DNA of 64,000 bases from assembly GCA_963666835.2 (NCBI GenBank), contig CAXXGO010000006.1, forward strand, positions 384,001 through 448,000. Reading direction: 5' to 3'. The notes beneath the pieces are model-generated. The model did no database searches and was not told the DNA's origin. It saw only the letters and a list, made by a program, of their open reading frames with translations. Source of the DNA: Phycisphaerae bacterium (GTDB lineage Bacteria > Planctomycetota > Phycisphaerae > UBA1845). Position numbers and translations under genes: made by a program. Positions 26,909 to 42,741 of the stretch are shown in pieces (position 1 is the first letter of the stretch; every line of letters starts with the position of its first letter).

Positions 26909-29704
26909 TCAATTAACCGGCTCGGGTAACCGCCGCCCCCGCCACGATTCATACTGCCCCGCACCGTTGAGCAGGTCGATCAGGCGGAGCACATCCCCGG
27001 GGCCACGGTGCCCGGAGCGGTCCAGATCGCAACTATAGTCCCCGAATGGAGGCACCTTCGTGCCATTCAAGCAGCAATCCAGAAGCCCTTGGATGTCCGG
27101 TACGTCCGCCAGCCGATCTGCGTCGACGTCAGCGGGAAGCGCGCTGAACAGCCCGGTGGCGTCTGCGCAACCGGTTCGGCTCGTGTAGGTCACCGCGGAG
27201 GACGCTCCCGGAGTCAACGGCCGGTCAAGCAGGATCACATACGTGTTGTCTCCGTTGGAAACCACGCTCGCTATCGCGTTCGTCCGACCTTCCCCGCCCA
27301 GCTCCCGGAGGCTCCAACAAGACGTCTCTGCGCGGTTCGGGGCACGGACGATCAGCGTATCGATCCCCTGCCGCATGGATGGGTCGTGCAGCGGATGGGG
27401 TTGTCCAGCGTCTATCACGCCGGCCGGGGGGGCGATCCAGGTCACCGGACCCTCCGGGCACTCCAAGTCCGGCAGCGAGGGGCATGGCGACTCGACTCGC
27501 AGGGAAAACGCTCCTCGACCCAGCGGAGAGCGAGACGCCACCGCGAGGTAGTATCGTTCGCCCACGGTCAGCCCGGTCAGGCAGCCGCTTGTCGGATTCC
27601 CATCCGCGCCGATTCCACCATCCTGACAACCGATTACTGCGAGACTATCGCACGATGTTGCGTCGCTCGTTGGGTCGGCGACCTGGAAAACCTGAAGAAG
27701 GAAGCCGTCAGCCGTGCCGTTGGCGCCGTAAACTCGAAGATCGGTGGACGCATGCCGGGCGATGAACGTGTACCACAGGGTTCCGAACCCCTGCGTACCA
27801 GGCTCCAGACCGTGACAGCAGAAGCCGGGCTCATCCACGGCCGAGCAGGCTCTTGCGTTGTCGGATTCCACCAGAGCCTGTCCGGCGGCATCCAGCACGA
27901 TTTCGATCGCCCCGAGCGCCGGATCAGGGTCTGCGCAGTGATCGTTTTCCGTGGGGGGATCGCACACTTCGGCCGCTCGATCGGCGCAGCGTTCATCCCA
28001 AACGGTATCGCAGCAGAACGGATCCGCTTCGCAGACTGCCCGGCAGCATCCGGTGACGCAACAACCGGCGCGGCCCTCGCACAACCCGTCGGGAAGACAC
28101 TGCCGCCGGTCCGGGCAATCGGCGCCGGTTGTACACTCCGTAACCTCACTGACCGCGAAGCAACTGCCCGACGCGCGAAGGCATGCGACCGGCGGGCACG
28201 CTTGCTCACCGGATTCGCACGGAACGCCCAGGCGCCAAGCCCCGGCAGCGTTGAAGCAATCGGGCTCAAGTAGGTCCTCACACCGGCCATCCGGCAGACA
28301 GCACGCGCAAGCACCGCAAGAAGGGGTGAACGGATCTTCGGCGCAGGTGACGTTACCGATCCACTCCCCCGCGCAATCCTGTTCGAGGACATCATCCTGA
28401 CAGTACGCTGCCGCCCCGTCCGCCGGTCCGACGCAACATGCCCCGGTAGGCGCAGGGCCGTGGCACCCGATGACAACAAAGAACACGGCCGGCGGGTCGC
28501 CTTCGAAGTTGCGAAAGCTCCAACCGCGGACCTTGTTACCGGGGTCAAGGGTTGCGTATACGTCGGCGCTGCTGCCGATGTCCGCTTCTCCGGCGACCAC
28601 GACACCCACTCCGTCTCGGTTCGCTTTCCATGCTGCCCAGAAGTTCCGCGGCAGATCGATACCGCGTTCATAAGTGAAGCGGATCAGTTCGAGCTCGCCG
28701 TCGCCAAGCCCCGCAAAAGTCCGAGCCGTTCCCGGAATCGGGTCGCCGGGCCCGGGATCCTCCCGCAGCTCCACGTCGATCGCATAAGGCCCTTCCCCCG
28801 CCCGTACGCCGAAAGTGCAGGAGGCCAGCTCACAGCTTTCAGTATTCAGGGCAATGTCGTCCGCGGTAAAAACCCCGGCACCGGCAGAGTATTGCGTACC
28901 GGAAGCGCGATAGGCCCGGTAGCCCGGGTGCTCCTCGGGGCAGTCGTCCCGAACGCGGACCTGCGCAAAGAAACTGGCGTGCGGGAACCGCGGATAGCCA
29001 CCGAAGTATGCCACGCAACCGCCAAACGGGTAACTGAAGCCGTCATACGAGAAACCCACTTCAGCCGGGGCGCCTGCGAGCCATCCGGCCGACGCCGAGT
29101 CGAACATCAACTGCACCCAAACCGTTTGCGGAATGATCATCGGGGCGTGGGAGACATCCACCGTGATTTCGAACACCCCATCATCAGGTAGCCCGACTGA
29201 TTGCTGCGTCCGAGCGATGACAACTCCGCCGGCCATGGGGCAATCGTCAAAGAGCGCCAGGTCGACTCCGAATCCCGGTCCCGTGCCATCCCCTCCACCG
29301 GCGACCCGGACCGAGTAGGAATCCAAAACGCAGCCTTCAATGCCGATTGTCGCCAGATCGTCACCTACGGCCACACCTGCTCCGGGCGCAAACAGGAACG
29401 TCCCGGTCGTGTTGCTGAAGACCAACGCTGTGCCGGTTTCACTCGGGCGGTTGCGCCGATCGGTTGTTGCGCCTAGGTTGATTCGACGAACCGGCTGCTC
29501 GTTTGGCACCGGTTGAAGCCCTTCCCGCAACGCATCTGCGGTGAACTCGCGCGGCCCGCCGGCAGTAACGTCGAGGCCTGCGCCTGCATGAACTGAGTAG
29601 CCAAGGACTGTTGCGGCGCAGAAGAAAATCCAGACCCGAATAGCGACCGAGCCGGAAGTGGCACTCGGCCGGGTCGCGTTAAGATCTTCTGCAGGCATGA
29701 CCAT
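26909..29704 (-). CDS. Secreted Cys-rich protein with a duplicated N-terminal beta domain and C-terminal dockerin/EF-hand-like pair, 931 aa
   Basis: Two APGAG..(G/A)DD modules; GACC..C repeats; CEADPFCCDTVWDERCA; DVDADRLAD..D and DLDRSGH...DVLRLIDLLNG. Confidence 0.75.
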   Translation of the reverse strand: MVMPAEDLNATRPSATSGSVAIRVWIFFCAATVLGYSVHAGAGLDVTAGGPREFTADALREGLQPVPNEQPVRRINLGATTDRRNRPSETGTALVFSNTTGTFLFAPGAGVAVGDDLATIGIEGCVLDSYSVRVAGGGDGTGPGFGVDLALFDDCPMAGGVVIARTQQSVGLPDDGVFEITVDVSHAPMIIPQTVWVQLMFDSASAGWLAGAPAEVGFSYDGFSYPFGGCVAYFGGYPRFPHASFFAQVRVRDDCPEEHPGYRAYRASGTQYSAGAGVFTADDIALNTESCELASCTFGVRAGEGPYAIDVELREDPGPGDPIPGTARTFAGLGDGELELIRFTYERGIDLPRNFWAAWKANRDGVGVVVAGEADIGSSADVYATLDPGNKVRGWSFRNFEGDPPAVFFVVIGCHGPAPTGACCVGPADGAAAYCQDDVLEQDCAGEWIGNVTCAEDPFTPSCGACACCLPDGRCEDLLEPDCFNAAGAWRLGVPCESGEQACPPVACLRASGSCFAVSEVTECTTGADCPDRRQCLPDGLCEGRAGCCVTGCCRAVCEADPFCCDTVWDERCADRAAEVCDPPTENDHCADPDPALGAIEIVLDAAGQALVESDNARACSAVDEPGFCCHGLEPGTQGFGTLWYTFIARHASTDLRVYGANGTADGFLLQVFQVADPTSDATSCDSLAVIGCQDGGIGADGNPTSGCLTGLTVGERYYLAVASRSPLGRGAFSLRVESPCPSLPDLECPEGPVTWIAPPAGVIDAGQPHPLHDPSMRQGIDTLIVRAPNRAETSCWSLRELGGEGRTNAIASVVSNGDNTYVILLDRPLTPGASSAVTYTSRTGCADATGLFSALPADVDADRLADVPDIQGLLDCCLNGTKVPPFGDYSCDLDRSGHRGPGDVLRLIDLLNGAGQYESWRGRRLPEPVN

Positions 29705-31908: not shown

Positions 31909-32742
31909 ATGGCAAGATTCGTTGAGTTCCATCTCGTTCTTCCGGACGGGTACAAGGCCTACGGGCGCTTCTGGGAAGCGCGCAGCCCTCGAGGTGCGGT
32001 CCTGTATCACCACGGAATTCAGTCACACTGTGGGTGGTACGAGGCTTCGGCGGAGTGGCTGGCCGATTCGGGGTATGCGGTTCTTCAGGTCGATCGCCGG
32101 GGCAGCGGGCGGAATGAGATTGACCGGGGGCACGCAGAGTCGGCGGACCAGTTGATTGCCGATGCGCTGGCGGCGCGCGATGAACTTGCACGGCGGGTGG
32201 GCTTTGCCGAGCACCATGTGGTCGGCGTAAGCTGGGGGGGAAAGCTGGCGGTTACGGCATACGTGACCGACCCGCAGGGAGTGCGAAGTCTCTCGCTGGT
32301 GACTCCGGGGCTGTTCCCGCTCGTCGGAGTGTCCAAGAGCATGATGGCCAAGATCGGTTTCGCGATGCTCTACGAACCACGAGAGTTCTTCGATATTCCG
32401 CTGGACGACGCAGAGTTCTTCACGTCCGTGCCGCGGTGGAAGGACTATATCGGTACGGATCCGCTCACTCTGCGCCAATGCACCGCCGGCTTCTATCTGG
32501 CTTCGCGCCGGATGGACAAGACGGTGGCTCGTTTGGGGGGTGTGGAGGCGGTTCCGATCCACTTGTTACTGGCTGGTGACGAACGAATCATTGACAACGA
32601 GCAGACGGAATGCTTCATTCGTACAGTAGGGTGGCCGGATTTCCGAGTAACACGATATGACGAAGCTCGGCATTCCCTGGAGTTCGAAGGGGACCCGGCC
32701 GGGTATTTTGGTGATCTGGTCGGTTTCCTTCAGGGGCATTAG
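31909..32742 (+). CDS. Alpha/beta hydrolase (lysophospholipase-like)
   Basis: HGIQSH, DRRGSG, GVSWGG nucleophile, D and H catalytic positions (GDERII, ARHSL). Confidence 0.88.
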   Translation: MARFVEFHLVLPDGYKAYGRFWEARSPRGAVLYHHGIQSHCGWYEASAEWLADSGYAVLQVDRRGSGRNEIDRGHAESADQLIADALAARDELARRVGFAEHHVVGVSWGGKLAVTAYVTDPQGVRSLSLVTPGLFPLVGVSKSMMAKIGFAMLYEPREFFDIPLDDAEFFTSVPRWKDYIGTDPLTLRQCTAGFYLASRRMDKTVARLGGVEAVPIHLLLAGDERIIDNEQTECFIRTVGWPDFRVTRYDEARHSLEFEGDPAGYFGDLVGFLQGH

Positions 32743-32897
32743 GTACTGGAAAAGCACGCCGGCGGCAGGGTCGCCCGCAACCGGTGGAGGACGGGTCCGA
32801 AGCGTGTTCCGTTACCCGTCATTTTGAGTCTTCTCGCCGTCGAGGACGGTGAGTACCGGCAGGCTTGTCAGGCGGCGACGTAGGAGTATTCACAACG

Positions 32898-34361
32898 ATG
32901 GTAAACAGTGCGAGAGAAACTCAAGACAAGAAGCGCCGAGTGCCGGGATCGTCCGGTTTTCGGCGATTTGGGCTTCTAGCCCTTGCGGTGTTGCTGGCCG
33001 CAACCGTATCCACCAGCCGCGCCGCCGCGACGGGGGCGGATTCTCCGGACGGCAAGATGCGTGCGGCATCCGCCAACGAGGATCCGCGACAAGGCAGGCG
33101 TTCCACGGGAAAGGCTAAGGCGCACAAGGCAAAGCGCACGGCGAAGAAGGACACGCCACCGGCACAGGCTGCCCCGGCACCAGCCCCGGCACAGGTTACT
33201 CCCGCCCCGACCCCGGCGGCCGGCGAGACGCCGGCCACTCCGGCTGAGGCAAAGCCCCTGTGGGTTTGCGAGAAGCCGACCGTGTTTGCCGAGCCGGTCT
33301 GGCAGGGTGATCCGGTTGTCTGCAAGTTCGAGTTTTCCAACCAAGGCACGGCCGATCTGGACGTAAAACTGAAGAAGGGGTGAGGTATCCAAATGAGCGG
33401 TCGGTCCGACCGCGTAATTAAGCCCGGCCAGAAGGATGACGTCACGATCACGTTGCAGTCGAAAGGCCGCACCGGTACGGTCAAACGCGATGTCACCGCC
33501 GTGACAAACGACCCCAAGAACCGAAGTGTGCGGCTCTCGTGTCGCGCAGAGGTTCGTAACCAGTTCAAGGGCGGATCTCTGAAGATGAGTTTCGGGAAGA
33601 TCACGCGAGATTCCGGCCCGCAAACTCGGACAATCACTCTGGAGCGCGGCGACGGCAGTGCCATCAAACCATCGGTCGTCAGAAGCGGACTCCCTGCGGA
33701 GGCTACCGCTGTTCGCGAGATCACTCCCGGCGAGAAGTACGAACTCGACGTCACGCTGAGCCCCCCGTGGCCCAACGGACCGTTGACCAGGTCCCTCAAA
33801 ATCAAGACCGGCATGAAGGAGGCTCCCGAAACAGAGCTTCGGATTAACGCCGACGTCGTGCCGCGGGTTGCCGCCGTTCCGAACCGTTTCTCTATTCGCC
33901 CCGGGGCTTCCGAGAAAGCCGAACACACGGCCATGATCGTCTGGGACGAGGGCGTCAACCACAAAGTCACCGCCGTCAGCGCGACCGATCCGCAGCTCGG
34001 GGTGCGGATAGACGAGACCCCGGGCGGACAGCAGAAGTTGGTGTTGACGGTCCCGGCCGGGTTTGTTCGCCCGAAGCGCCTGCCGTCGGTTACCCTCACG
34101 ACGGACGATGACGAAGTGAAGACGTTGGTGGTGCCTATCAGGTATGCCGCGGTAAGAAAGACCCGGGGACCTCAACCTCCACGGGGTGCGGTACCGGCCC
34201 CCAGCTTGCGCTCCACTGCGCCGCCGAAGTCGGCGGGGGAGACCGGTACTACCCAGACTGAGCAACCGGACAAGAAGACTCCGACGACCGGCAAAGAAAC
34301 GCCGAGCGCCGACAAGAACAAGGGCGGCTGCGGCGGTGGTTGCGGGGGCGGCGGCAAGTAG
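32898..34361 (+). CDS. Exported DUF1573-like Ig-fold protein; candidate selenoprotein with UGA at 33381-33383 (about 487 aa)
   Basis: Track ORFs 32865-33383 and 33393-34361 are in one frame separated only by TGA-GGT-ATC-CAA. The joined sequence FEFSNQGTADLDVKLKKG-U-GIQ...VIKPGQKDDV..VTNDP reads as one DUF1573-like domain. Confidence 0.75.
33397..33413 (+). promoter_or_regulatory. Putative bacterial SECIS hairpin
   Basis: GCGGTC-GGTCC-GACCGC; the G-initiated apical loop starts 19 nt after the UGA. Confidence 0.6.
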
Positions 34362-34396
34362 CCCTCTCGCTGCGAGAGGCAAGTTTGAGTTACCGT

Positions 34397-34434
34397 GGGG
34401 CAGCGCGAACAACCGATCGCGCTGCCCCGTTTCT
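34397..34434 (+). terminator. Intrinsic terminator
   Basis: 12-bp stem GGGGCAGCGCGA/TCGCGCTGCCCC followed by GTTTCT. Confidence 0.6.
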
Positions 34435-34785
34435 ATACCGGCGGCGGTGGAAGCCGTATCGACGGGCAAGGACGTGTCTGAACAAGCCCGGGGCCGCGCG
34501 ATCGTCGATGAGTCGGTGTCCCTTACGTGAGGCGCAAGTGCCGGCTTTGAGGAGGGAAGTACGGTTGTGCTCAAGTTCGAGATGGTATTGCCGATAAAGG
34601 ACTCGTAGGGTGGTACAAACCCTAGCAGCCCGCTGCAAAGCGGATGAATACAGACACCTCAGCGCAGGCGTCTCTCGAGATCATAAGCGGAAGTAGGCTC
34701 CGAACATAGGCGGCCGGAGTCTGGCGCGGCGGCACGCGCCGTTTTGGCTAACCGGCGGCAAGTCACCCGGACGAAGAGTGTGTTT

Positions 34786-35049
34786 TTGAGCGTGCCCAGC
34801 GGTGTCAGACATCTTGCCGGTACCACGATTCCGTTTGGGAACATCGCGGAGCCGGGCTGCTATGTAAGCCACTGGGACGGACATCTGCTTCGCGTTCTCC
34901 CAGGCGGTGTGGTTGCGGGGCGTTCCCCGGTTTTGAGTATTGTGGGGCGGCGTACGCTCTACGTGACGAAGATCAGCAGTGATCCGTTCTTGCCGATGAC
35001 GAGAGCGCGCTCGGCGGCAGCCAACTTGGATCTGAACGTGGAATTCTGA
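34786..35049 (+). CDS. Small conserved-looking hypothetical protein (start uncertain)
   Basis: IPFGNIAEPGCYVSHWDGHLLRV..GRSP..VTKISSDPFLPMTRAR..AANLDLNVEF is protein-like and followed by a terminator. Confidence 0.65.
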   Translation: MSVPSGVRHLAGTTIPFGNIAEPGCYVSHWDGHLLRVLPGGVVAGRSPVLSIVGRRTLYVTKISSDPFLPMTRARSAAANLDLNVEF

Positions 35050-35084
35050 AGCTCGGTGGTTCGGTCGGACATCGGGAGTCAGTC

Positions 35085-35121
35085 GGCGGTGGGCGGTCCG
35101 GAGGGGCGCCTGCCGCCTTTT
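35085..35121 (+). terminator. Intrinsic terminator
   Basis: GGCGGTGGGCG/CGCCTGCCGCC stem followed by TTTT. Confidence 0.5.
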
Positions 35122-35285
35122 CTACGCACCGCGCTATGTAACAAGCCGGTCTCTAACCGCACCGAATGAGCCTTTCGATCCGGGAGACGTATAATCCCCG
35201 TAGCTCACCGGGAACCGGGGCGGAGAGGCCGCCTTCGGAACCGTCGGGAACAAAGCGGATTCTAGTCATGCATGCAGGATGGATT

Positions 35286-37634
35286 ATGAGATTCAGGCTA
35301 ACGCGGGTTGTATTGGTTGTGATGTCGGTAGCCCTGGGCTCATCGGGTTTTGCGCAGACCCCCGGGGCCGCCGGATCCAAGCCGAAGGCGAGATTGAGCC
35401 TGGTCTCGGCGGTTGAGGCCGTCACCGCGGCCCAGCCCTTCGAACTCGGGATTCGGATCGAGCTGGATTCGGGATGGCACACTTACTGGCAGAACAGCGG
35501 AGACAGCGGTTTGCCGCCGAAGGTCGCATGGGATCTGCCGGAGGGGTTCTCGGTCGGTTCTCTGCGGTTTCCCGTACCCCAGCGTCACGTCGACCGGCTC
35601 GGGATGTCGACGTACGTGCTGCCCGGCGAACCGGTTCTGCTGGCCACCGTCACCCCGCCGGAGAAGATTGCGAATCCGAAGGTCACGTTCGGGGCGAAGG
35701 TCAACTACCTGGTTTGCAGAGAGAAGTGCCTGCGCGAAGAGGCCGTGATCCGTTTGGAGCTGCCGGTCCAGCTTCCTGGGAGCACCCCGAAATCGATCAA
35801 CGAGGATCTCTTTCACCGAGCCCGCGCTGCTTTACCCCGTACTGCGAGTAAGCGCGTTACCGTCACGGCCACGGCGGATGTAAAGGCGCTTACACAAGGG
35901 CAGATCTTCGAGCTGGACCTGGCGGTAGATATTGCTGAGGGCCTCGGTCTTCCGGTCGGCAAAGACGATCACGGCATGCCGAGGGTCGACGTGTTCATGA
36001 AGCGTATCGGCGGCGTCTACTTCGAAGCCCCGGTACTTTCCGATCCGCAGCAACTCGAACGTGATTACGCGACCGGTCGGTTTACGATCCGCGTCCCTAT
36101 CGAGATTGACGAAGTTCCACCATCCGGAGCTTTGAGTCTAGAGGGTGTTCTTGCTTACACGCCTTGCGAGCGGGTCGAAGAGTGTTATCCGCGGGAAGGA
36201 GCGCTTTTCTCTCTGTTGGTAGGTGATCAAAATGACGTTGCCGCGTCACAACCTGCAGAGAGTGATGCTTCGCCGCCGGTTGCGATTCCGTCAAGCCCGC
36301 CCCCTGCCGCACTTTTGCCGCAGGAAACACGTTCTGAGGAAGGAGCGGGCAAGCCCCCGGGTTTTCTGGATCGATTGGGCGCGATTGGTTTGCTGATCGG
36401 CTGTTTCATCTACGGCCTGTTTCTGAACGCCACCCCCTGTGTTCTGCCGTTGCTTTCGATCAAGGTCCTTGGGTTCGTCCAGCAGGCCCACGAATCGCGC
36501 AAACGCACTCTGGGGCTCGGCTTGGCATTCGGGGCCGGCGTGATCTTGTTCTTTATCGTTCTGGGTTTGTTGGCCGGGGCGGGCACAAACATCTTGCACT
36601 TCCCGGTAGCGGTCATTGCCCTCTCCACAGTTGTCATGGCGCTGGCACTTGGGATGCTCGGGGTCTATACGTTGAACGTACCCACCACCGCCACCAAGCT
36701 CGAGGCCAACATTCAGCGCGAGGGCGGGCTTGCCTCGTTCGGCAAAGGAGCGTTGGCTCCGGTTCTGGGTTTTGCCTGCACCGGACCGCTACTAGCCGGG
36801 GCGTTCGCGTGGGCCACCCAGCAGCCGTGGGGGCTGGCTGTGGCGGCGTTCACCGTCGCCGGCTTGGGCATGGCCAGTCCGTACATAATCCTGGGCGCCA
36901 ACCCCAACTGGCTCAGTTTCTTGCCCAAGCCCGGTCCTTGGATGATCACGTTCGAGCGGATCATGGGTTTCCTGCTGTTGGCGATGGTCGTCTGGCTGCT
37001 CGATCCGCTGGTAACCCAGATCGGGGCGGCGGGGCTGCAGTGGACGTTGGTGTTCATGGTGGCGGTGGCGATGGCCTGCTGGGTGCTCGGACGGATCGAC
37101 GTGACGATGCCCGCAAAACAGCGCTGGCGCTATCGCGTCACCGCATTGCTGATCGCAGGTGCCGCCGCGGTCGCCGTCTACGGTTGGATTTACCCGATAG
37201 GCGAAGCCGCCGAAGCCGCGCGGCAACGGTATCTCGCCCAACATGGCGGATACGCTACGGTCGACTGGTCGACGGGGATACCCTGGCGGCATTGGTCCCG
37301 GGAGGCGGTTGAGCGCGAGGTCGAAGCCGGCAAGATAGTCTTCGTGGATTTCACGGCCGCGTTCTGCACCGAGTGCAAAGCCAACAAGAAGCTGGCCACC
37401 AACACGGCAGAGGTGCGGGCGAAGATGGAGTCGTTGGGGGTGGTCCCGTTCAGGGGCGATTTCACATGGAAGGACGCCGCAATATCCGCCGAGCTGCAAC
37501 GCTTCAATCACGCGGGCGTGCCGTTCAACCTGATCTACCGTGCGAATCAACCGGATAAGCCAATGGTGCTGAAAACGGTCCTGACCAAGTCCTACCTGCT
37601 GGAGAAACTGGACGAAGCCTCCCGACCAGAGTGA
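35286..37634 (+). CDS. dsbD: DsbD-family thiol:disulfide interchange protein (two DsbD-N domains, TM domain, thioredoxin)
   Basis: GWHTYWQNSGDSG, VCREKCL, NATPCVLPLLSIK, ACTGP, DFTAAFCTECKANK. Confidence 0.88.
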   Translation: MRFRLTRVVLVVMSVALGSSGFAQTPGAAGSKPKARLSLVSAVEAVTAAQPFELGIRIELDSGWHTYWQNSGDSGLPPKVAWDLPEGFSVGSLRFPVPQRHVDRLGMSTYVLPGEPVLLATVTPPEKIANPKVTFGAKVNYLVCREKCLREEAVIRLELPVQLPGSTPKSINEDLFHRARAALPRTASKRVTVTATADVKALTQGQIFELDLAVDIAEGLGLPVGKDDHGMPRVDVFMKRIGGVYFEAPVLSDPQQLERDYATGRFTIRVPIEIDEVPPSGALSLEGVLAYTPCERVEECYPREGALFSLLVGDQNDVAASQPAESDASPPVAIPSSPPPAALLPQETRSEEGAGKPPGFLDRLGAIGLLIGCFIYGLFLNATPCVLPLLSIKVLGFVQQAHESRKRTLGLGLAFGAGVILFFIVLGLLAGAGTNILHFPVAVIALSTVVMALALGMLGVYTLNVPTTATKLEANIQREGGLASFGKGALAPVLGFACTGPLLAGAFAWATQQPWGLAVAAFTVAGLGMASPYIILGANPNWLSFLPKPGPWMITFERIMGFLLLAMVVWLLDPLVTQIGAAGLQWTLVFMVAVAMACWVLGRIDVTMPAKQRWRYRVTALLIAGAAAVAVYGWIYPIGEAAEAARQRYLAQHGGYATVDWSTGIPWRHWSREAVEREVEAGKIVFVDFTAAFCTECKANKKLATNTAEVRAKMESLGVVPFRGDFTWKDAAISAELQRFNHAGVPFNLIYRANQPDKPMVLKTVLTKSYLLEKLDEASRPE

Positions 37635-40311: not shown

Positions 40312-41612
40312 TGAGCAAGGTCATTGCCCTGGCTATCAAGGATCTGCGGTTGCTCTTCCGCGACAAGGCGGGATTGTTCTTCACGCTGTTCCTGCCGCTG
40401 ATCTACTGTGTCTTCTTCGGCGCGATCTTCTCCGGGATGTACGGAGGCGGAGGGGTCAGCGGGATGGACACGGCCGTCGTCGACGAGGACGGCACCCCCA
40501 GCTCACAGCTGTTCATTCAGACCCTGGAGAAGGCCGCGGAGATCAACGTACAGACCGCCGACCGGGCCCAGGCGTTGGATTCGGTGCGTCGAGGGAAGAA
40601 CGTTGCCTGCGTTATCATCCCGAAGGGGTACGGGGCGGCGATGGCGAAACCCTTCTGGGGAGGTTCGCCTACGCTCGAGTTGGGTATAGACCCCTCCCGC
40701 CGGGCCGAGGCCGGCATGCTGCGCGGGATTCTCACGCAATACCTGTATCTGGAGATTCAGAAGAACATCTCCGACACGGCCAAGCTGCGGGAGCAGCTCA
40801 GCGGAGCACTGGAGGAGGTGCGAGCGTCTGAGGACACCGACCCGGTTACCCGTGGTGCCTTAATGCTCTTTCTGCCGGCACTGGACGGCTTCCTGGGTTC
40901 GCTGGCTCAGGCGAAAGATGCCGATGGTGACGGTGACGGCTCTTTCGCCGGGTTCCCGCGGGCGAAGATCGAGAGGATCGATATCGCTCGCAAGTCGAAG
41001 GGACCGCTCCCAACCAACGCTTACCAGGTTTCCTTTCCTCAGGGCGTGATCTGGGGCTTGCTGGGGTGCGCGGCGGGGTTCGGTATCTCGCTGGTGGTAG
41101 AGCGCACTCACGGAACTCTGGTGCGTCTGCGCATGGCTCCTATCTCCCGAGCGCAAGTGCTTGCGGGGAAGGCGCTGGCGTGCTTTGCTACGACGGTGGC
41201 GCTGCAGGTCGGATTGTTCCTCCTGGCTCGGGTAGCCTTCGGCGTGCAACCGACTTCGGTGGCCATGTTGGCAATGGCCGTGATCTGCGGATCGCTGGGG
41301 TTCGTCGGGATCATGATGCTCCTTTCCGTTTTGGGCAAGACCGAGCAATCGGCCGGCGGGATCGGCTGGGCGGTGCTGCTGGTGATGGCCATGCTGGGCG
41401 GGGGGATGGTGCCACTGTTTGTCATGCCGTCATGGATGAGAACGTTGGGCAACGTCAGCCCGGTCAAGTGGGCCATAACGGCGATGGAGGGAGCGGTCTG
41501 GCGCGAGTTTACGTTCGCGCAGATGCTCTTCCCGTGTGGTGTCCTGGTCGCCGTCGGCGTGGTGTGCTTCACCGTCGGCGTGTGGGCCTTCCGCTGGACC
41601 GAGGAGGGGTAG
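40311..41612 (+). CDS. ABC-2 type exporter permease
   Basis: N-terminal TM, large extracytoplasmic loop, ERTHGTLVRL, five C-terminal TMs. Confidence 0.92.
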   Translation: MSKVIALAIKDLRLLFRDKAGLFFTLFLPLIYCVFFGAIFSGMYGGGGVSGMDTAVVDEDGTPSSQLFIQTLEKAAEINVQTADRAQALDSVRRGKNVACVIIPKGYGAAMAKPFWGGSPTLELGIDPSRRAEAGMLRGILTQYLYLEIQKNISDTAKLREQLSGALEEVRASEDTDPVTRGALMLFLPALDGFLGSLAQAKDADGDGDGSFAGFPRAKIERIDIARKSKGPLPTNAYQVSFPQGVIWGLLGCAAGFGISLVVERTHGTLVRLRMAPISRAQVLAGKALACFATTVALQVGLFLLARVAFGVQPTSVAMLAMAVICGSLGFVGIMMLLSVLGKTEQSAGGIGWAVLLVMAMLGGGMVPLFVMPSWMRTLGNVSPVKWAITAMEGAVWREFTFAQMLFPCGVLVAVGVVCFTVGVWAFRWTEEG

Positions 41613-41793
41613 CATAGCGGTGGGATCTCTTGCGATGCCGGCGCGGGTGTCATCGGGCCGGCAGCGTAAGCCGGTGTAGAGCGGCATCGGCGTGGTGGCA
41701 CGTCAACGGGCCGCCGCGTATCGGGCAAGAGCGAGTCGTTCACGCTTGCCGTACGGATTACGCCGACCGCTTCGCAGGGTACCGTCGGCGGGT

Positions 41794-42605
41794 GTTGGGC
41801 ACGGCCGAGGCACGAGACCTGCCGCAATGCCGCACGTCGCGCGAGGACCACGTAGGGCACGGTCGAGGTACGAGACCTGCCATCAAGGCCGCACGTCGCG
41901 CGAGAACCACGTAGGGCACGGTCGAGGTACGAGACCTGCCATCGAAGCCGCAATCGACCGAGTTGCACGAATATGTGACACCCGCGTGGCTCGCGGGATT
42001 AGCCCGCCAGGGCGGCAGCTCTGCCTAGCCCGCGGCGTCAGCCGCGGGATCGCCTGCTCTTGAGCAGTGCAGAACCGGCGTTGCCACATGGTTGTCATCC
42101 CGCGTAGGGCACGGTCGAGGAACGAGACCTGCCATAGAAGCCGCACATTGCACGAAGATCTCGCGTTCGGGGCATGGACCGTTCCAGCTTGCCCGTGGAG
42201 TCATGCATCGCGTCAAGCTCCACGGATCAACAAGTTGCCCCAGGACACCCTGGTGGCACCCCTGTGGGGCACGGTTGAGGTACGAGAACTGCCACAGAAG
42301 CTGCACATTGCACGAAGGCCAACGGCAGGTCTCGTTCCTCGACCATGCCCTACACCCGCTATTCCCGCTGGACGTGGGTGAGCCGATGATCAGGTATCGA
42401 CCATTGCGGCAGGTCTCGTTCCTCGACCATGCCCTACACCCGCTATTCCCGCTGGACGTGGGGGAGCCGATGATCAGGTATCGACCATTGCGGCAGGTCT
42501 CGTTCCTCGACCATGCCCTACACCCACCATTCCCGCTGGACATGGGTGAGCCGATGATCGGGCGTCGACTACCGCGGCAGGTCTCGTGCCTCGACCGTGC
42601 CCTAC
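41794..42605. repeat. REP/BIME-like mosaic array 1: nine copies of a ~30-bp GTAGGGCA(C)GGTCGAGGxACGAGACCTGCC element
   Basis: Forward copies at 41794, 41852, 41911, 42104 and 42264; reverse copies at 42324, 42408, 42492 and 42576 (84-bp period). Confidence 0.88.
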
Positions 42606-42741
42606 GATTGGGATATAACATCGGGCAAGGGATGGGTACCCGCGCTTGATATCAAGAGTCTGTTGGGTATGGGGCACCTGTGCGTACCTAATACGGTTGC
42701 AGACCTGCGTTTGATCGGAGTATTATGATCCGCGCAGACGT

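Follow-up and report, generated by a model that had tools for sequence, protein, structure and literature searches.

The window analysed here (64,000 nt in all) contains two open reading frames, 32865/32898–33383 and 33393–34361, which lie in one frame and are divided by a single TGA at 33381–33383, in the context KKG-*-GIQ. An earlier note on this DNA had proposed that the TGA encodes selenocysteine (Sec) and conceals a selenoprotein gene, and the division of two same-frame ORFs by an in-frame TGA was confirmed. Reading the TGA as Sec gives a translation of 487 aa in which Sec occupies position 162 (U162). The features of the gene are as follows:

32882..32886, + strand: AGGAG, Shine-Dalgarno-like, 11 nt 5' of the ATG (from the sequence)
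32898..34361, + strand: whole gene, 487 aa with TGA read as Sec, comprising a signal peptide, a low-complexity linker, three Ig-like domains and a low-complexity tail
32898..33023, + strand: likely signal peptide, with a basic n-region, hydrophobic residues 20–41 and an Ala-rich end (hydropathy scan)
33024..33242, + strand: Lys/Pro/Ala-rich linker, Cys-free
33258..33557, + strand: Ig domain 1 (DUF1573), PapD/ASH-like fold, running across the TGA (Pfam PF07610, 3.7e-13; pLDDT 95.9; fold matches)
33381..33383, + strand: in-frame TGA for the predicted Sec162, placed in an interstrand loop, with the motif K-G-U-G
33397..33413, + strand: predicted SECIS hairpin (stem of 7 bp and loop GUC, or stem of 6 bp and loop GGUCC), coding for S-G-R-S-D-R
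33558..34151, + strand: Ig domains 2 and 3, Cys-free
34152..34358, + strand: low-complexity tail ending in KGGCGGGCGGGGK, with candidate mobile partner Cys

The DUF1573 domain scores 49.8 bits when it is matched across the TGA (residues 132–219), against a Pfam gathering cut-off of 26.1; the downstream ORF alone scores 31.5 bits, and the upstream ORF has no match. Structure prediction of the 306-aa core returned three all-beta domains with a pLDDT of 95.9. Ig domain 1 contains C124, C142, U162 and C215, and extra Cys residues are found in the C-terminal tail (GGCGGGCGGGGK), namely C478 (at 34329) and C482 (at 34341). According to the hydropathy scan, residues 20–41 are the only hydrophobic stretch of the 487-aa protein. 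A signal peptide is therefore lacking in the second ORF, as the earlier note had stated; export of the whole protein by its signal peptide is likely. The proposal made there that Sec insertion would yield one exported protein of ~487 aa is supported by the Sec machinery, the alternation of TGA and Cys at the column, and the hairpin, all described below. In public collections the gene is present as two fragments, annotated as proteins of 161 and 322 aa. One public contig is identical over a 1.7-kb stretch and is possibly the window's own source; the other three runs do not span the TGA. A promoter scan gave nothing.

On the contigs of the window's genome (G000), selA (568 bits) and selB (302 bits) adjoin each other. 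A tRNA-Sec with anticodon UCA was found, together with two copies of selD, one having its own in-frame TGA and the other being fused to a NifS-like domain; a search for selA, selB, selC and selD had been suggested earlier, and all four components were recovered. The fusion of the NifS-like domain with the Cys-type SelD is located at G000:C1:1328296-1330400 (L010), and the separate TGA-type selD is on C6.

In the DUF1573 C-G-C motif, the TGA takes the place of the first Cys. When homologues were aligned, as the earlier note had recommended, this column was found to be Cys in 19 of the 19 non-TGA homologues examined, and TGA otherwise. Among the 150 matches from 61 genomes, 24 have one internal TGA, the best 21 included, and none has TAA or TAG at the site, the occurrence of which in relatives had been named as evidence against Sec; most of the 150 library matches align only downstream of the TGA site. 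The TGA is retained at 30–45% protein identity. A profile search at E up to 1e-45 over 251 genomes of the class gave matches in 35 of the 36 that belong to the same order and in none of the 215 others; the 12 matches with E < 1e-79 each contain one TGA. DNA was also scanned for the hairpin pattern, with the hairpin fixed and the codon left open (TRN, which admits codons for Cys, Trp and Tyr and the remaining stops). Among the matches listed, true homologues make up 22 of 80 and 10 of 33 loci from genomes and 35 of 119 from metagenomes. Every one of them has TGA, and the counts cover members with the hairpin, since the pattern demands it. The 22 titled records among the listed matches are all from Planctomycetota, mostly Phycisphaerae. 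A search for related loci with the single window protein returned no relative.

The TGA form occurs in 18 of the 61 genomes, and selA in 17 of those 18. The remaining one (G003) has no selA or selB match; an assembly gap is likely there, because it contains tRNA-Sec twice as well as a TGA-type selD. In G032, which is 63% complete, selB has no match, and in G054 it falls below the cut-off. Seven other genomes have neither selA nor the TGA form, which is a weak test because most Sec-positive genomes also lack this form (it is found in 17 of 53). A paralogue in the window's own genome (G000:C7:86324, L026) shares both the TGA column and the hairpin, with a loop Cys instead of the tail Cys. One database protein of the same branch (P0005) has Trp at the Sec column and an intact SECIS peptide, possibly reflecting a TGA translated through a code-4 gene call.

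The perfect GCGGTC/GACCGC stem with a G-first loop that the earlier note had reported downstream of the TGA was found at 33397–33413, its arms being at 33397–33402 and 33408–33413 with GGTCC inside. The spacing of 19 nt given for it is correct for the start of the loop, but not for the stem, which starts 13 nt after the codon. An extra G-C pair lengthens the stem to 7 bp and leaves GUC as the loop. The bacterial SECIS model, as printed in PMC13188914, has a loop of 3–9 nt, a stem of 4–16 bp, a G within the first two loop positions and a spacing of 16–37 nt, with an energy limit of ≤ −7.5 kcal/mol. With its 7 bp, loop G-GUC-C, 19 nt and −12.1 kcal/mol (centroid), the window hairpin lies within these four constraints and the energy limit, and the description of it as SECIS-like is further borne out by covariation in homologues. 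Taken as a single sequence, the 60-nt region has an unremarkable fold energy (z −0.19, with 83 of 200 shuffles folding equally well), and a search of 32500–35200 against Rfam at E up to 1 gave no SECIS family and one chance match. The register is uncommon, as six pairs with a G-first loop at that place follow 157 of the 157,693 TGA triplets of the genome (0.1%). Over the 24 TGA genes, 98.2% of the 168 cells of the 7-bp stem are paired, and slid controls give 20–41%. Changes on both sides are seen in five of the seven pairs, and none of 500 shuffles is equally high, a test which relatedness inflates; the structure itself was derived from one of the 24 sequences. With these double changes in the stem the encoded peptide varies too (GRSDR, GRSAR, GRSVR, GQAGQ, RQSGG). 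At the fixed register, six of six pairs are formed in 22 of the 24 TGA genes vs none of the 19 Cys genes; of the two other TGA genes, one has five pairs and one has its hairpin displaced by a codon. On this sequence evidence, the UGA is almost certainly decoded as Sec, with insertion of Sec162.

Selenoproteins of this kind have been described before. The OS_HP2 selenoprotein family has been known since 2007 (PMC1976440), and in later papers the motif of the DUF1573 selenoprotein family is given either as UGC (PMC9312934, PMC13188914) or as UxC (PMC2398784). The window gene shares with OS_HP2 (PF07610; NCBIfam NF041425) the DUF1573 domain, Sec on the first Cys of C-G-C, a downstream SECIS and common Cys homologues. 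It differs in that OS_HP2 is U-G-C, while the branch of the window gene is U-G-x with the second Cys elsewhere, was found in one Phycisphaerae order and forms a separate long branch of the tree (97/87). NF041425 gives 55.3 bits on the window gene, below its cut-off of 100, and 46.7 on the paralogue; it exceeds the cut-off in only 3 of the 61 related genomes, all with Cys forms. Because of this score and the motif, we place the gene in a sister branch and not as a formal OS_HP2 member. The DUF1573 selenoprotein family is thus already known, and the U-G-x branch is a variant of it, neither a new family nor a new recoding mechanism. The U-G-x form was not found in the literature passages on DUF1573 selenoproteins that were available (running text, as distinct from supplements and figure alignments).

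In the tree, which has 75 rows and a midpoint root (27 of 102 distinct rows were excluded as too short), the U-G-x proteins make up one side of the long branch, apart from the C-G-C proteins. U-G-C forms also occur among the latter; of these, L071 (G037:C33), L125, L176, L221, L264 and L265 have the hairpin in the same register. A Sec copy and a Cys copy of similar sequence stand in tandem in G037, a Sec/Cys tandem pair is present in G001:C34, and a Sec/Sec pair in one frame in G035:C19. As genes of the branch are split into two fragments in public collections and score below the curated cut-off, its contribution to the selenoproteome of this Phycisphaerae order is undercounted.

The motif of the window gene reads U-G-I, and the loss of the second motif Cys pointed out earlier is common to the whole clade, with Cys at +2 in none of the 23 branch rows. 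The position of other Cys residues was therefore counted in the 46 U-G-x proteins that are full-length and show a signal peptide (seven rows without one were dropped), and 43 of them have an extra Cys elsewhere. It is in the linker in 22 of the 46, mostly as a single Cys in x-G-C-G, 56–92 residues before Sec, and the linker motif K/S-G-G-C-G resembles the Sec motif K-G-G-U-G. In another 15 a Cys occupies the loop that follows strand E, and the linkers of these 15 (932 residues) contain no Cys. Three proteins (window gene, L034 and L042) have it in the tail, one (L032) at −2, and two (L050 and L102) directly after the signal peptide, while three (L040, L123 and L223) have no partner Cys at the scored sites. 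Among the C-G-C and U-G-C proteins, none of 22 has a linker Cys (891 linker residues). Fourteen of the loop-Cys members form one clade (98/94), nested among linker-Cys members; their missing linker Cys is essentially one event, so the Fisher p of 4e-9 is too strong. The three tail-Cys members are another small clade. Judged from the tree, the Cys relocations are a handful of events, not dozens. The tail Cys is probably the second Cys of the window gene. Of the Cys residues in Ig domain 1, C124 and C215 are frequent in the branch and, by strand order, are likely joined in a structural disulfide; C142 has a patchy distribution and is another possible partner. Branch members of the Cys type contain vicinal C-C, C-G-C-G or a Cys in the linker, and the linker of L037 contains nine Cys and several His. 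In the predicted structure of a linker-type member, the GCG segment is disordered (pLDDT about 58–61) and shows no docking.

The neighbourhood was compared over 43 short loci and 17 long ones (11–18 kb), and no conserved operon was found in either set; the upstream genes are shared only with G024 among the loci compared. A DsbD-like protein with an N-terminal domain, a membrane domain and a thioredoxin domain is encoded 0.8 kb downstream (35166–37634, + strand). A functional link to it was dropped, as it was matched in 0 of the 83 related loci, most of which have short flanks, and no conserved redox neighbour was seen in the related loci examined. Between the two genes, a 101-aa ORF (34744–35049, + strand) has no Pfam or NCBIfam match. 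Further away in the window are a likely secreted, Cys-rich protein of 931 aa with no Pfam match at E 0.001 (26909–29704, − strand) and, after ABC transporter genes, repeats of ~25-residue units in several frames (41600–42650).

We know of no function for DUF1573. Our preferred reading, to which as a whole chain of steps we give a probability of roughly 55%, is that the selenoprotein gene encodes an exported three-Ig thiol/selenol redox protein, with the Cys of the flexible tail as partner of Sec. SelB and Sec-tRNA would bind the hairpin and insert Sec162, and the signal peptide would direct the protein out of the cytoplasm. Sec162 would then use its exposed selenol to attack a disulfide or an oxidised thiol in a protein that is secreted or belongs to the envelope, and C478/C482 on the tail would resolve the resulting mixed bond, giving a Se–S bond (in relatives, the linker, loop or −2 Cys would resolve it). 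A periplasmic reductant would finally reset the Se–S bond. The distribution of the second Cys agrees with this scheme; the undocked GCG segment, the lack of a conserved redox neighbour and the three members with no scored partner count against it. More tentatively, the branch may represent an exported redox catalyst on an Ig scaffold in which the resolving Cys has been re-placed in at least four ways (into the N-terminal linker, the adjacent loop, the −2 position or the C-terminal tail), the arm forms copying the Sec motif as K/S-G-G-C-G. If true, a swinging thiol arm on an Ig scaffold would provide a handle on DUF1573 function. The natural variants with a moved second Cys allow a redox role of the C-G-C/U-G-C site to be tested directly. 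In some selenoenzymes, such as mammalian thioredoxin reductase and MsrB1, the resolving Cys is carried by a flexible arm, and these may be compared as functional analogues in which Sec is paired with a Cys delivered by a mobile segment; their folds are unrelated, and the window protein has Sec on the domain and Cys on the arm.

Closer relatives of the three-Ig core are C-G-C paralogues fused to AhpC/TSA-thioredoxin domains, which are present in the window's genome as well. These TlpA-like fusions (for example G000:C1:391k and P0087) share the three-Ig core at about 24–28% identity and the signal peptide, but have the Cys form with both motif Cys, no hairpin, and thioredoxin-like domains attached. 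The copy at G000:C1:391084-394780 (L024/L027) is a frame of 1232 codons in which three Ig domains (C-G-C) precede several repeats of a thioredoxin-like domain. For domain 1, fold matches were obtained with the PapD-like/ASH Ig domains of HYDIN (2ys4; Z 11.3, rmsd 2.1, 100 residues aligned), with VesB (4lk4; Z 11.4, rmsd 2.2, 96 aligned) and with a P. gingivalis structure (2qsv; Z 11.7, rmsd 13.6, 195 aligned). They share 8–11% identity with domain 1, indicating a common fold and giving no functional evidence, and no catalytic precedent for the Ig fold was found among them. A PDB sequence search at E up to 1 gave 0 matches, and the atlas structure clusters are named DUF1573 only.

Other readings of the locus were weighed against the preferred one. 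A true stop, with either a pseudogene or two genes and re-initiation at ATG 33393, is very improbable. Gene callers do split the gene at the TGA, and an SD-like GAGGT overlaps it 6 nt before that ATG, but the split would cut one Ig domain in two, and the conservation of the TGA over distant relatives, never as TAA or TAG, speaks against a stop. The ATG position of the window is found in 1 of 83 distinct TGA contexts, and the two-gene reading fails because 66 of the 83 have no ATG, GTG or TTG within the next 11 codons. Reading of the TGA as Trp or Cys, through an altered code or plain read-through, deserves practically no weight: the W of P0005, perhaps a gene-caller choice, would agree with it, but TGA is otherwise an ordinary stop that closes 359 of the 872 long frames of the genome, a tRNA-Sec is present, and the hairpin accompanies TGA and not Cys codons.

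The other alternatives keep the same selenoprotein and assign a different role to it. In the main rival reading, Sec162 and the mobile Cys could bind a soft metal (Cu, Hg or Ag) extracellularly, as a chelator or chaperone, which would suit the two tail Cys within a Gly-rich spacer, the Cys- and His-bearing linker of L037 and the vicinal C-C of the Cys-type members. We consider this unlikely, and prefer the redox role because the C-G-C paralogues are fused to thioredoxin-like domains and most members have a single extra Cys; moreover, no common metal-transport neighbour was recognised in the 17 loci of 11–18 kb, with clusters judged by eye. It is improbable that the protein is a selenium store or carrier feeding a selenocysteine lyase, the extra Cys being incidental. 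In 3 of 83 loci (L111, L223 and L320:6336-8130), the gene immediately following a two-Ig TGA gene is indeed NifS-like and shares 68% identity with the NifS portion of the NifS-SelD fusion in the window's genome. This adjacency is limited to one small clade, however, and is absent from the window, while one Sec per 300–500 residues would be poor storage and the Cys pattern would be left unexplained. Finally, Sec might act alone or with a partner protein, with the linker and tail Cys serving in dimerisation or anchoring, as the three members of 46 without a scored partner Cys and the missing docking in the predicted structure might suggest. We find this quite improbable, since the linker Cys is missing exactly where a motif Cys (0/22) or a loop Cys (0/15) is present.

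The redox reading of the window gene aside, the same genome contains further candidate selenoprotein genes. Three Omp28-related TGA genes (G000:C6:886751, L324; C6:954496, L325; C1:1961944, L326) likely encode exported selenoproteins with U-x-x-C, each with a SECIS-like hairpin that looks like that of the window gene, with its loop one base earlier. NF045500 gives 50–100 bits on them, against a cut-off of 200, and no publication on Omp28 as a selenoprotein was found in the literature search. In addition, a repeat present in five copies (G000:C1:1129534, C6:1567472, C6:2673898, C6:1728749 and C7:70954) carries an in-frame TGA that precedes Cys-Cys and a 12-bp hairpin whose loop starts with G, and is probably a mobile element read in a shadow frame.
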